Positions 28,953 to 32,018 of a stretch of 64,000 nt of DNA are shown piece by piece; position 1 is the stretch's first letter, and each line of letters starts with the position of its first letter. The stretch comes from Klebsiella phage vB_Kpn_K54_rec1. Below the pieces are notes generated by a model that saw only the letters and a program-made list of their open reading frames with translations, did no database searches and had not been told where the DNA came from. The DNA is taken from sequence record PQ569687.1; one strand, 5' to 3'. The position numbers were made by a program, and so were the translations under genes.

Positions 28953-29188
28953 GCAGACTTGCAAAACTAAACAGAAGAAAGAAGATGTTGAAAGAAAAGC
29001 AGAAAAACATCACGGCTACTTTCCAAGTATGCCGAGAGGCTATGAAGGCAAATCGGATAACACCTTCGCAGAGACAGTTGATCCGTGATATTCTTCGTCC
29101 TGTTCTCCACGACCTTGAAGGTGAAGTTCGTGATGTTACACTTCATATTCAAGAGGAACTTGTAAAAAGATATCAGGAGAATACATGA
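28949..29188 (+). CDS. hypothetical basic protein (79 aa)
   Basis: ATGA overlap. Lys/Arg-rich N-terminus. Confidence 0.45.
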   Translation: MSRLAKLNRRKKMLKEKQKNITATFQVCREAMKANRITPSQRQLIRDILRPVLHDLEGEVRDVTLHIQEELVKRYQENT

Positions 29189-29778
29189 TTGACCATGTTA
29201 CGTCAGACACTCACTGGTGGCATACCAACATCCTTGGTTTCCCATCGTGTGATAAATTCCGTAAGAATCTGTACGGTCAAAAAGAAGACCGTGAAAGTCT
29301 GTATGCCATGAATGCAGGTATGATTGAAATCTGGAATAAGCACGTCAAACCAGATGATGTCGTAGCACACCTTGGTGACTTCGTGATCGCTTACGGTCGC
29401 TACGTTGAGCCACGCACTCGTGATATTCTGGAAAAGATCAACGGAAAGATCATTCTTATTGGTGGTAACCATGACAACCGAGATACGAAACGTATCTTCC
29501 GTGAATTCGGTCATGAAGTTGTTGATTATAAAGAGATTAACTTCAGCACTGGAAAAGAGAAGGTGCATGTGTGTATGTCTCACTATCCGTTCGCATCGTG
29601 GAACAAAGCACACCACGGGTCAGTTATGTTGCACGGGCATAGCCACGGCTCCTATACAGCCCCCGGTGGACGTATTCTCGATGTAGGTTGGGATGTTCAT
29701 GGTCGTCCTCTGACGATGCGTGAGGCCGTCCTGATGTGCCTCAAAAAACCAATCTACACTGCTGACCACGGAGAATAA
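29185..29778 (+). CDS. calcineurin-like metallophosphoesterase (197 aa), candidate RNA 3'-phosphatase of an RNA-repair set
   Basis: Motifs DTHWWH, GDFV, GGNHD and HGHSH form the binuclear metallophosphoesterase signature. Lies 0.5 kb upstream of the RNA ligase. Confidence 0.65.
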   Translation: MIDHVTSDTHWWHTNILGFPSCDKFRKNLYGQKEDRESLYAMNAGMIEIWNKHVKPDDVVAHLGDFVIAYGRYVEPRTRDILEKINGKIILIGGNHDNRDTKRIFREFGHEVVDYKEINFSTGKEKVHVCMSHYPFASWNKAHHGSVMLHGHSHGSYTAPGGRILDVGWDVHGRPLTMREAVLMCLKKPIYTADHGE

Positions 29779-29779
29779 G

Positions 29780-30136
29780 ATGCATAACAAAGAACGAAAT
29801 TTCATAGCACGTAACACGGCGAAGTCTTTCTTCGCTACTATTCACATTGCCGGGGATTATGCTCAGGCCAAGAATTTGTGTCGCCATTGGGTTATGCAAG
29901 GTGCTTGTGTGCAGATTGCTCCATGCATCTATGTTTACACAGGTGGTGTCGAAGATGGTATGACTGTGCGGTTGATGCAGTATCCACGTTTCCAGCGTCA
30001 GGAGCATGAGATATTATCAATGGCTGTCGAACTTGGAAAATATCTTGCTCAGGAGATGTGCCAGATAAGCTTCAGTATCGAAACTCCTTATAATACAACA
30101 TATTATCAGGCGGAAGGTTATGAAAAAAGATCTTGA
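29780..30136 (+). CDS. hypothetical protein (118 aa)
   Basis: Plus-strand ORF immediately after the phosphoesterase. Confidence 0.4.
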   Translation: MHNKERNFIARNTAKSFFATIHIAGDYAQAKNLCRHWVMQGACVQIAPCIYVYTGGVEDGMTVRLMQYPRFQRQEHEILSMAVELGKYLAQEMCQISFSIETPYNTTYYQAEGYEKRS

Positions 30137-30317
30137 TCTTATCCATAACGTGGCCTTTTTGATTAGCGAGCTTGAAGAATATGTTGACGAACTAGACCTG
30201 AGCATCTATGATGACTACAGTGAAATGAAATCAGCACAAAAAGAAGTGCTCAAACTATTGAAAAATCTCAGACGAAGGAGAGAACATGAAATTCAACGTA
30301 GACGATTTGGTCGATAA
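30120..30317 (+). CDS. hypothetical small protein (65 aa)
   Basis: Short overlapping ORF with acidic and coiled-coil character. Confidence 0.3.
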   Translation: MKKDLDLIHNVAFLISELEEYVDELDLSIYDDYSEMKSAQKEVLKLLKNLRRRREHEIQRRRFGR

Positions 30318-31263
30318 AAAACTGGTAACCAAAAAGACTTACACCGAAGGCCCGTTCGCGGGTCTGTCTGTGCTGAAGTATAAGAACAATGTGTTCTGGG
30401 ATAACCTGTGGCATACTGACCCACGACTGCTTGAGTGCCGTGGCATGGTTGTTGATGCAGATAACAACGTTGTTATCTGGCCTTTCACTAAGATTTTCAA
30501 CCGCTTCGAGAATGGAACTGACCTTTCGGCAGATAGGTTGGTCGATGCAGCTCGGAAAGTGAACGGATTCATGGCATCTGCTGGGGTATATAAAGGGCAA
30601 TTGGTGGTGTCAACAACAGGAACCCTTGAGTCAGAATTTGCAGTTATGGCTAAGAATCATATCATTTCCGAGTGCAATGATATTGAGCACTTTATCAAAT
30701 GGACTGCGAATGCAAAAGCAACGTTCCTATTCGAGATCTGCGATCCTTCTGATCCGCACATTATTGCGGAAGATGCGGGTGCTTACCTGATCGGTGTGCG
30801 TATCCAGAATCCTGACGGCACAAGCTTCATGTTGCCGGAAGGCGCTCTTGACGGTCTTGCAAATGTGACAAAGTTCAAGCGCCCAGTTGTTCATCAGATG
30901 ATTAAATTCTCTGATGTTGTTGAAATGTCCAAGAAATGTCAGCACGAAGGATATGTTGTTCGTGATCCAAACTATCCATTCAGTCTGCTCCTTAAAATCA
31001 AGTCACCACACTATCTCGCGAAGAAATTTCTAATGCGTGGAGGTGATAACAAGTGGGATATGATCTGGGATAACCCGAAAGAGGCCAAGAAGCGTATTGA
31101 CGAAGAGTATTACGAGTTGCTTGACCATATCCGCGAGTATTACTCTAAAGATGACTGGGCTGGGATGGATTCTCAAAAACGACGTCAGGTTGTTGAAGAT
31201 TACTTCGCTATCGAAGACATGTTTGGTCGTGGTAGTCGTTTTTATGTTGGGGTTCCAAAATGA
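30286..31263 (+). CDS. RNA ligase 1 (T4 RnlA-like), 325 aa
   Basis: Blocks recalled from T4 Rnl1: LLECRGMVVDADN (T4 ALECRGIMFEMDG), KIFNRFENG, motif I KVNGFMASAG (T4 KEDGSL) and HEGYVVRD...LLKIKS (T4 IEGYVAVMKDGSHFKIKS). Confidence 0.75.
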   Translation: MKFNVDDLVDKKLVTKKTYTEGPFAGLSVLKYKNNVFWDNLWHTDPRLLECRGMVVDADNNVVIWPFTKIFNRFENGTDLSADRLVDAARKVNGFMASAGVYKGQLVVSTTGTLESEFAVMAKNHIISECNDIEHFIKWTANAKATFLFEICDPSDPHIIAEDAGAYLIGVRIQNPDGTSFMLPEGALDGLANVTKFKRPVVHQMIKFSDVVEMSKKCQHEGYVVRDPNYPFSLLLKIKSPHYLAKKFLMRGGDNKWDMIWDNPKEAKKRIDEEYYELLDHIREYYSKDDWAGMDSQKRRQVVEDYFAIEDMFGRGSRFYVGVPK

Positions 31264-31604
31264 TTATCTGGCTTGATGACCTGAGAGATCCAAAAGACTA
31301 CGGGTATCCTGATGCCTTGTGGTTCAAGACCTCTCAGAAATTTATGGACTTTCTGGACAACAGGTCAAAGTTCTATCGTTATGTCACAGAGTGGCATTTC
31401 GATAATGACCTTGGTGAAGAGTCAGAAATGGAGGGCTATGACTGCCTGTTGGCCTTGGAAGAGAAGCTTGTGTATGGAAAACTTCCTGTGCATGATGCTA
31501 AACTCTATGTCCATACGTCTAACCCTTCTGCGGCACAAAAGTTCATGCTTGCAAAAGAGAGCTTCTTGAAGTATCGTATCACGATCTTAAGAAACAATTA
31601 CTGA
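31260..31604 (+). CDS. hypothetical protein (114 aa)
   Basis: ATGA overlap with the RNA ligase. No motif recognised. Confidence 0.4.
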   Translation: MIIWLDDLRDPKDYGYPDALWFKTSQKFMDFLDNRSKFYRYVTEWHFDNDLGEESEMEGYDCLLALEEKLVYGKLPVHDAKLYVHTSNPSAAQKFMLAKESFLKYRITILRNNY

Positions 31605-31613
31605 GGAGAAGAG

Positions 31614-32018
31614 ATGGAAAAGACTCTGATTATCCTGCGTGGTGTGTCTGGTGCTGGTAAGTCTACAGTTGCTGAAACAATCGCGGGTAAAGCATGGCCT
31701 GTATTTGAGGCCGATAAATACCATTATCGGGACGGGGTTTACGACTGGAAGCCTGAAAACATGGCTGTTGCTCATAAGTGGTGTCAAGAACAGGTACGTG
31801 AGGCTATGGTGTGCCGTATTGCAAAAATTATCGTATCCAACACTTCGACAACAGAGAAGGAACTAAAACCCTACATTGCCCTTGCTGATGAGCACGGATA
31901 CCAAGTTATTAGCTTGGTGGTCGAGAATAGGCATGGTAATGATTCTATTCACAATGTTCCGCAGGAAACTCGTGATGCTCAAGAGCTTCGTCTGCGTAAC
32001 TCATTGAAATTACAGTAA
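31614..32018 (+). CDS. P-loop polynucleotide 5'-kinase (T4 Pnk kinase-domain-like), 134 aa
   Basis: Walker A GVSGAGKST at the N-terminus. Size and layout resemble the Pnk kinase domain. Adjacent to the ligase. Confidence 0.6.
   Translation: MEKTLIILRGVSGAGKSTVAETIAGKAWPVFEADKYHYRDGVYDWKPENMAVAHKWCQEQVREAMVCRIAKIIVSNTSTTEKELKPYIALADEHGYQVISLVVENRHGNDSIHNVPQETRDAQELRLRNSLKLQ

Follow-up and report, generated by a model that had tools for sequence, protein, structure and literature searches.

At the breaks that they make in RNA, host ribonucleases, anticodon nucleases among them, produce one end with a 2',3'-cyclic phosphate and another with a 5'-OH. Phage T4 answers the PrrC anticodon nuclease by repairing tRNA with Pnkp (pseT) and Rnl1 (rnlA, gp63); its 3'-phosphatase, a HAD (DxDxT) domain, shares a polypeptide with the kinase. 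The Pnkp-Hen1 system of Clostridium thermocellum and the Pnkp1-Rnl-Hen1 system of Capnocytophaga pair an ATP-dependent ligase with two healing enzymes, a P-loop polynucleotide kinase and, for the 3' end, a binuclear metallophosphoesterase; fungal and plant Trl1 is built in the order LIG-KIN-CPD. Here we analyze a 64,000-nucleotide stretch of DNA from Klebsiella phage vB_Kpn_K54_rec1 (PQ569687.1; "the window"), in which a gene cluster beginning at position 29185 probably encodes an RNA break-repair, or "heal-and-seal," module made of separate small proteins. Like the Clostridium and Capnocytophaga systems, it is predicted to unite a kinase, a metallophosphoesterase, and an ATP-dependent ligase in these roles. 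Unlike T4, it has a metallophosphoesterase and a cREC protein encoded apart from the kinase and, unlike the Trl1/Tpt1 pathway, it has neither a 2H-type CPD domain nor a Tpt1/KptA.

The cluster and its general meaning have already been published, as the sirtuin-centered RNA repair neighborhood type 2 of Iyer, Burroughs, Anantharaman, and Aravind (2022, Viruses 14:1977, PMC9503650), whose prototypes are Escherichia phage V5 and Proteus phage Mydo. Section 3.7.3 of that paper gives the same gene set (sirtuin, T4-like tRNA ligase, cREC, nucleotide kinase, MazG, and calcineurin-like phosphoesterase) and the same functional reading, the clean-up and ligation of RNA ends bearing 2',3'-cyclic phosphates. 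As a prediction of RNA repair the module is thus already known from their work, which like ours is computational, and its value now lies in experimental follow-up rather than in discovery; our literature search on the module in Vequintavirinae found no experimental study. What we add is modest. Their section centers on the sirtuin and calls the phosphoesterase "occasional," whereas across related loci we find that the phosphoesterase and kinase are the ligase's constant partners and that Sir2 and cREC are restricted. Also absent from that section are two further findings of ours: the kinase is in some loci fused to the ligase, and the phosphoesterase-kinase cassette occurs with a second RNA ligase family as well.

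Three genes make up the core:

29185-29778, plus strand: metallophosphoesterase of the aq_1665 family (197 amino acids), with a proposed role in 3'-end healing as a 2',3'-cyclic phosphodiesterase and/or 3'-phosphatase
30286-31263, plus strand: predicted ATP-dependent RNA ligase of the Rnl1/Trl1 adenylyltransferase clade (325 amino acids), for sealing
31614-32018, plus strand: stand-alone P-loop kinase of the polynucleotide 5'-kinase type (134 amino acids; AAA_33), predicted to act in 5'-end healing

A preliminary description of this DNA had reported these three genes, and our listing of open reading frames (ORFs) finds all of them where it placed them, with 507 bp between phosphoesterase and ligase and 350 bp between ligase and kinase, both intervals being filled by further ORFs. 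In the mechanism that we propose, the Pnk-type kinase would phosphorylate the 5'-OH. At the other end of the break, the phosphoesterase, the cREC protein encoded between ligase and kinase, or both would open and remove the cyclic phosphate to yield a ligatable 3'-OH. The ligase, adenylylated on K91, would then join the 3'-OH to the 5'-phosphate, as expected from its family. We infer the roles of the phosphoesterase and kinase from gene context. The same holds for tRNA as the substrate, which is suggested by the T4 analogy, by an array of 22 tRNA genes about 6-14 kb from the module, and by related loci, 18 of 60 of which have tRNA genes no more than 6 kb from the ligase.

Support for a functional unit comes from gene linkage. 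We collected 80 viral loci encoding ligase homologs (38%-86% identity) and searched their ORFs with iteratively built hidden Markov models (HMMs). Within 6 kb of the ligase, the phosphoesterase was found in 67 loci, the kinase in 72, and both in 60. Most lay much closer, within 1.5 kb in 60 of the 67 and 70 of the 72, respectively, and the median gap to the ligase was 115 nt for the phosphoesterase and 0 nt for the kinase. Both partners were present in 28 of the 36 clusters obtained by single linkage of the ligases at 60% identity. Gene order is not fixed: phosphoesterase-ligase-kinase occurs in 36 loci and the inverse order, kinase-ligase-phosphoesterase, in 22. The phosphoesterase, ligase, and kinase are therefore a conserved core in many phages.

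In 16 loci the kinase and ligase are a single polypeptide. Twelve of these are viral, with the kinase fused to the N terminus of the ligase, an arrangement that reverses the ligase-kinase order of Trl1; nine are complete ORFs of 421-432 amino acids (among them those of loci L059, L063, L070, L073, L074, L079, L081, and L082), and three are ended by a contig edge (L068, L071, and L080). The fusion ORFs keep the catalytic signatures of both enzymes. Within 6 kb of the viral fusions we detected no phosphoesterase. The other four, on Cardiobacteriaceae contigs from metagenome-assembled genomes (MAGs; L085-L088), encode fusions of about 490-500 amino acids, likewise with the kinase N-terminal, and have an aq_1665-type phosphoesterase directly after them. 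A scan of 185,579 species genomes with two peptide patterns returned cellular counterparts at five loci, all in MAGs, and the ligase clade thus looks essentially phage-borne.

We also scanned in the reciprocal direction, taking the top 80 loci each for the phosphoesterase and the kinase. An Rnl1-like ligase was present in 37 and 25 of these, respectively. A further 39 loci in total carried the phosphoesterase-kinase pair without an Rnl1-like ligase and, in 11 of them, the pair adjoins an RNA ligase of a different family, PF09414 with a PHA02142 OB-fold domain (for example, L188:6951-8075 and ten similar loci). That the cassette follows two RNA ligase families, changes its gene order, and fuses to the ligase is a classical signature of functional coupling, and the fusions and the second ligase association strengthen the end-healing assignment. 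Other recurrent neighbors in the PF09414-type loci are a DSP/PTP-type phosphatase, an HD_4 protein, a Nudix protein, and a DUF2828/DUF7788 protein. In seven loci the Rnl1-like ligase is adjoined by a HAD "Swiss-army-knife" RNA repair phosphatase (PF18143); one of these phosphatase genes is L055:3640-4167, at a locus with an aq_1665-type phosphoesterase and no detected kinase.

These linkage data bear on whether the true substrate might be DNA, with the module healing and sealing DNA ends, such as 3'-phosphate/5'-OH nicks, together with the ATP-dependent DNA ligase encoded two genes downstream (33024-34328). T4 Pnkp acts on DNA ends too, 42 of the 80 loci have an ATP-dependent DNA ligase gene no farther than 6 kb away, and the phosphoesterase has a weak similarity to the ligase-associated PdeM family. 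That similarity, however, scores 16 bits against a cut-off of 150; no module protein came near an NCBIfam threshold, and we did not use the PdeM match, or one to bacterial Pnkp that also fell far under its cut-off, as evidence. The phosphoesterase and kinase abut the RNA ligase, whereas the DNA ligase varies in side and distance; it is the RNA ligase to which the kinase is fused; and where the Rnl1-like ligase is missing, the partner is again an RNA ligase. We therefore consider repair of DNA ends very improbable.

The proteins themselves are consistent with repair of RNA. Their PHROG matches (E values from about 1e-50 to 1e-73) are far stronger than those to Pfam; single-sequence searches of the PDB gave only weak matches for all three, and the kinase and phosphoesterase called for profiles. 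The ligase scores 53.4 bits against Pfam RNA_lig_T4_1 (cut-off 28.3). The preliminary description had pointed to near-identical blocks shared with T4 RnlA, and all the motifs that it listed are present (LLECRG with R52, K91-V-N-G, E221-GYVV, and LLKIKS with K237 and K239), but this likeness is confined to short catalytic motifs. Overall the relationship is remote, with an E value of 0.003 in the single-sequence search and about 25% identity when a profile of 23 homologs is aligned to T4 RnlA by hhalign (96.6% probability, E 5e-10, 181 columns). A narrow ligase profile run in hmmsearch missed T4 Rnl1 entirely, which is why we turned to hhalign and a fold search.

Among 81 ligase sequences with identities down to 38%, the residues of motifs I, III, IV, and V (K91, E150, E221-G222, K237, and K239, corresponding to T4 K99, E159, E227-G228, K240, and K242) are 100% invariant. 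So are R52 and K69, which together with F71 (91% conserved) correspond to the Rnl1-type N-terminal residues R54, K75, and F77 of T4. The ligase is structurally an Rnl1/Trl1-type adenylyltransferase with all of its catalytic residues. The aligned stretch covers T4 residues 48-249 and ends there. In T4 Rnl1, specificity for the tRNA anticodon loop is conferred by the C-terminal domain (residues ~255-374), and this T4-specific domain is not demonstrably present in the phage ligase. Shuman's group sorts RNA ligases into families by the domains that are appended to them (PMC6379707) and, with its C-terminal domain unmatched, we file the protein in the Rnl1/Trl1 clade rather than as a strict Rnl1.

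The ligase gene is also a mosaic when compared with phage BIS47. Its central 470 bp (30526-30993, roughly residues 81-236, the nucleotidyltransferase core) has no blastn match in that phage, and on either side of it identity is 99.3% (27901-30525) and 92.6% (30994-34319). The ligase proteins of the two phages are 70% identical, and the phosphoesterase, cREC, and kinase 99%-100%, which suggests that the ligase core was exchanged by recombination.

In PHROG and several GenBank records this gene is called "RNA ligase and tail fiber protein attachment catalyst," a name inherited from T4 gp63, and one might suppose that the ligase homolog serves mainly as a tail fiber attachment factor, like the second activity of gp63, beside neighbors of unrelated function. 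The invariance of every catalytic residue in the 81 sequences argues against this, as do the tight linkage and occasional fusion to the kinase and the position of the gene among nucleotide and early-type genes rather than tail genes. Moreover, gp63 beyond residue 249 cannot be aligned to the phage ligase. We judge a primary role in tail fiber attachment to be extremely unlikely.

The kinase is, on sequence comparison, of the polynucleotide 5'-kinase type, its closest solved relatives being Pnkp1, Clostridium thermocellum Pnkp (CthPnkp), and T4 Pnk. It scores 41.7 bits against AAA_33 (cut-off 27; E 2e-10) and matches phrog_2071 with an E value of 1e-55. As the preliminary description had anticipated in calling it Pnk-like, a profile of 28 homologs ranks polynucleotide kinases first in the PDB: Capnocytophaga Pnkp1 (4xrp) is the best match (E 4e-6), and the alignments with the kinase domain of CthPnkp and with T4 Pnk are full length. 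Against T4 Pnkp, hhalign gives 96.9% probability (E 1.5e-10, residues 1-149). The family is also selective, since its HMM finds pseT alone among all ORFs of a 28-kb T4 segment and this gene alone in the 64-kb window. In the Walker A motif, GVSGAGKST, as noted previously, K16 and T18 are invariant and position 17 is Ser or Thr; the invariant D34 aligns with the catalytic D35 of T4 Pnk.

The preliminary description had allowed that the protein might prove to be a deoxynucleoside monophosphate (dNMP) or adenylate kinase, and had proposed a profile comparison. When this was done, gluconate, adenylate, and nicotinamide riboside kinases matched only around the P loop. We rejected identity as a dNMP, adenylate, or nicotinamide riboside kinase on the basis of these local matches, the kinase-ligase fusions, and a separately annotated dNMP kinase encoded about 12 kb downstream.

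The phosphoesterase, described earlier as a calcineurin-type enzyme, is confirmed as such by its Pfam Metallophos score (28.9 bits, cut-off 21.5); it also matches phrog_547 (E 4e-50). In 38 homologs D8, H10, G64-D65, G94-N95, D97, H133, G151-H152, and H154 are invariant and H96 of the GNHD motif nearly so; all of the binuclear metal-binding motifs are intact. The profile matches Aquifex aeolicus aq_1665 (1xm7) with an E value of 5e-23 and, far more weakly, GpdQ, Rv0805, and YfcE. An AlphaFold2 model (pLDDT 93.7) has the same first match in a fold search (Foldseek E 1.9e-9, TM ~0.6), followed by Mre11, MJ0936, PptH, Rv0805, and GpdQ, and we assign the protein to the aq_1665 sequence family. The lambda phosphatase/CthPnkp clade carries the signatures GDxxDRG and GNHE, whereas motif II of the phage protein is G-D-F without DRG and motif III is GNHD. 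Indeed, phosphatase chains of lambda phosphatase or CthPnkp were absent both from the profile search of the PDB, at E values up to 1, and from the best 50 of 649 Foldseek matches to the model. The suggestion that the split architecture is closer to Clostridium Pnkp than to T4 thus holds at the level of the superfamily, but not for the phosphoesterase itself, which matches CthPnkp in neither sequence nor fold.

Several observations weigh against heal-and-seal repair of tRNA. All of the enzymatic activities are predicted. Many of the sampled loci are phylogenetically related, and the counts overstate their independence. The phosphoesterase and kinase families are several times commoner in viral contigs than the ligase clade (relatives in more than 520 viral loci each, compared with 99 for the ligase), and in 28-30 of each reciprocal top-80 set the query gene has neither partner within 6 kb. 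The nearest characterized relatives of the phosphoesterase are generic phosphodiesterases and nucleases (Mre11, MJ0936, Rv0805, and GpdQ), and we know of no function assigned to aq_1665 or its family and of no link between aq_1665 and RNA ligases. In T4 Pnk, Arg38 touches the phosphate on the 3' side of the 5'-terminal nucleoside; its position in the phage kinase is occupied by H37, which is mostly but not always conserved, and R39, two residues beyond, lacks conservation among the homologs. In the ligase, all 81 sequences have KxNG as motif I where T4 has KxDG, an invariant T111 replaces T4 K119, and the helical C-terminal region is about 70 residues long as opposed to 120 in T4 Rnl1. With these motif differences and a short C-terminal domain, tRNA specificity of the ligase cannot be assumed. 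Overall, the earlier heal-and-seal interpretation is largely borne out by the intact ligase residues, the Pnk-type kinase, and the linkage and fusions; the likeness of the ligase to T4 RnlA is remote.

Some of these ligase features also bear on a possible different 3'-end chemistry. The core lies within a longer run of genes on one strand, preceded by a promoter-like site:

27908-27935, plus strand: promoter-like site, TTGACA-16-TAGAAT, with 11 of 12 consensus matches, in a divergent intergenic region; it heads the module's gene run
29780-30136, plus strand: 118-amino-acid ORF with no function assigned (phrog_4848, E 3e-50), found in 6 of 80 related loci
30120-30317, plus strand: 65-amino-acid ORF with no function assigned, overlapping the ligase start (phrog_32298, E 4e-44), found in 5 of 80 related loci
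31260-31604, plus strand: cREC protein (114 amino acids; PF20274), a proposed opener of 2',3'-cyclic phosphates
32027-32251, plus strand: 74-amino-acid ORF with no function assigned (phrog_343, E 1.5e-11), found in 3 of 80 related loci
32248-33024, plus strand: Sir2-family protein, a probable accessory part (PF02146, E 1e-23; phrog_2162, E 2e-109)
33024-34328, plus strand: ATP-dependent DNA ligase
Between the DNA ligase and MazG genes, plus strand: three small ORFs in the same gene run
35391-36062, plus strand: MazG-superfamily nucleotide pyrophosphohydrolase (PF01503, E 5e-5), annotated in relatives as nucleotide pyrophosphohydrolase

All six genes of the published neighborhood are therefore present on one strand between 29185 and 36062, and from the 74-residue ORF to MazG the reading frames overlap or abut. 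Although the core of the three-gene module put forward in the preliminary description holds, the module is larger, and the cREC, Sir2, and MazG genes had been overlooked. The cREC gene matches PF20274 (cREC_REC) with 64 bits (cut-off 27; E 2e-17), and D6-D7, D48-x-D50-L-G, and [TS]-x-N-P are conserved in 12 aligned homologs, including those of the distant loci L043 and L060. The family and its operonic linkage to RNA ligases were defined by Iyer et al. (PMC7824862), who originally predicted it to act on cyclic ADP-ribose or cyclic RNA ends; its catalytic role is a prediction there and in section 3.7.3 of the later paper (PMC9503650). Among the 80 ligase loci, cREC occurs in 13, MazG in 12, and Sir2 in 11, always with the phosphoesterase in the case of Sir2. 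These three genes are additions, in the Vequintavirinae-like lineage, to the phosphoesterase-ligase-kinase core. The small ORFs at 29780-30136, 30120-30317, and 32027-32251 are interleaved with the repair genes and restricted to the closest relatives. The first of them has no Pfam or NCBIfam match and, since it occurs in so few loci, is probably not a core part.

The presence of cREC, Sir2, and MazG in the gene run makes a 3'-end chemistry unlike that of T4 a possibility, and an NAD+-dependent repair of the fungal type has been proposed for exactly this neighborhood (PMC9503650, section 3.7.3). According to this proposal, cREC opens the cyclic phosphate to a 2'-phosphate and 3'-OH, the ligase joins ends bearing the 2'-phosphate, Sir2 strips that phosphate in an NAD+-dependent reaction like that of Tpt1/KptA, and the phosphoesterase processes the ADP-ribose cyclic-phosphate by-product instead of the RNA end. 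Trl1-LIG represents the fungal Rnl6 type of ligase, which requires a 2'-phosphate, and the phage ligase offers some encouragement. KxNG is the Trl1-LIG form of motif I, and the invariant K247 and R251 a short way past motif V lie where Trl1-LIG has an RxxR thought to bind the 2'-phosphate (PMC6379707), a correspondence that is putative. Trl1-LIG matches the ligase as well as T4 Rnl1 does in the fold search, and the C-terminal region of about 70 residues is nearer to the 79-residue Trl1 module than to the 120-residue T4 one. In addition, genes of the NAD+ reconstitution type adjoin the run. Yet K247 and R251 are invariant throughout the clade and the phosphoesterase is near-constant, whereas most members have neither Sir2 nor cREC nearby, which weakens the proposal. 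Nor does a 2'-phosphotransferase activity of Sir2 have a precedent: to our knowledge, no Sir2 protein has one. We therefore keep this chemistry as a minority hypothesis and consider it unlikely.

An extended form of the same idea treats the ligase clade as a third, phage-specific branch, marked by KxNG, Thr in place of T4 K119, K247/R251, and a short helical C-terminal domain, that seals ends carrying a 2'-phosphate made by cREC. In Vequintavirinae-like phages the sirtuin would then strip the 2'-phosphate with NAD+, and the aq_1665-family phosphoesterase would be a new enzyme for processing RNA ends or ADP-ribose cyclic phosphates. This we regard as doubtful. If true, bacterial viruses would have their own version of the Trl1/Tpt1 chemistry by which eukaryotes splice tRNA, and a sirtuin would serve as RNA 2'-phosphotransferase.

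On the other side of the promoter region, and transcribed divergently from the repair cluster, a NAMPT-like gene (577 amino acids, PF04095; 24170-25903, minus strand) adjoins a PRPS-like gene (266 amino acids; 25911-26711, minus strand). Genes of these two kinds make up NARP1 (Namat plus Adps), by which phages reconstitute NAD+. Separating the NAD+ genes from the divergent promoter region are genes for two helix-turn-helix proteins (26708-27289 and 27273-27635, both minus strand), of which the first also has a T5orf172/MUG113-type domain (21.1 bits, cut-off 20); this could be a regulator or the remnant of a mobile element. The tRNA array (14921-22919, minus strand) covers most amino acids and includes tRNA-Lys(UUU).

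The proximity of NAD+ genes raises the question of whether the phosphoesterase, cREC, kinase, and Sir2 might process NAD+/ADP-ribose metabolites or nucleotide immune signals on behalf of those genes, the ligase being a mere neighbor in an anti-defense island. Not only does the window contain both NAD+ genes, but a PRPS-like gene flanks the ligase in 27 of the 80 related loci and a NAMPT-like gene in 20. The first prediction for cREC included cyclic ADP-ribose (PMC7824862), accessory phosphatases are known in NARP1 operons (bioRxiv 10.64898/2026.01.28.702374), and a nicotinamide riboside kinase is among the weak matches of the kinase (E 0.011). That match is limited to the N-terminal part, however, and the full-length matches in the PDB are polynucleotide kinases; the known NARP1 accessory phosphatase is a Macro domain rather than a metallophosphoesterase. 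In most of the ligase loci that have both partners, no NAD+ gene lies within 3.5 kb. Further arguments against the ligase being a bystander are its fusions to the kinase and the fact that the phosphoesterase-kinase pair accompanies RNA ligases of two unrelated families. This alternative is, in our judgment, very unlikely.

Returning to RNA repair, the layout of the locus suits an early role. Near-consensus sigma-70-like promoters stand back to back on the two strands at 27876-27935, each with 11 of 12 matches, and the sign of the GC skew changes near 28 kb, where gene orientation also switches; the region looks like a divergent early control region. From the plus-strand site at 27908-27935 to the next strong one, at 36059 (12 of 12 matches), we found no strong terminator on the plus strand. 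Together, these consensus matches suggest expression by the host polymerase, which would hence be early. A packed gene run headed by such a promoter, with NAD+ genes and a tRNA array nearby, would suit an early anti-defense role that protects translation.

The region 29185-32018 is 100% identical to that of the Mydovirus-type Klebsiella phage vB_Kpl_K54lambda1.1.1 and its recombinant derivatives. Identity is 98%-99% across 83% of the region in the Mydovirus phages BIS47, KpS8, and KpS11 and Proteus phage Mydo (Vequintavirinae), the last at 98.7%. Records of related phages annotate the first gene as "phosphoesterase," the second as "RNA ligase (and tail fiber protein attachment catalyst)," and the kinase gene as "ATPase" or "hypothetical"; one record gives the product of the intervening cREC gene as a [quoted passage not shown]

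Should the predicted activities hold, the module would provide a compact set of separate enzymes, for the healing and sealing of RNA ends, that might serve as reagents. It would also supply a first function for the cREC domain and for the aq_1665 metallophosphoesterase family, for which the RNA ligase context in phages already provides a functional hypothesis, and it would put the action of sirtuins on RNA 2'-phosphates to the test. For the phage, translation would be defended in two ways, by its own tRNA genes and by the repair of cut RNAs, and the repair genes, standing beside genes that rebuild NAD+, would form part of an anti-defense island.

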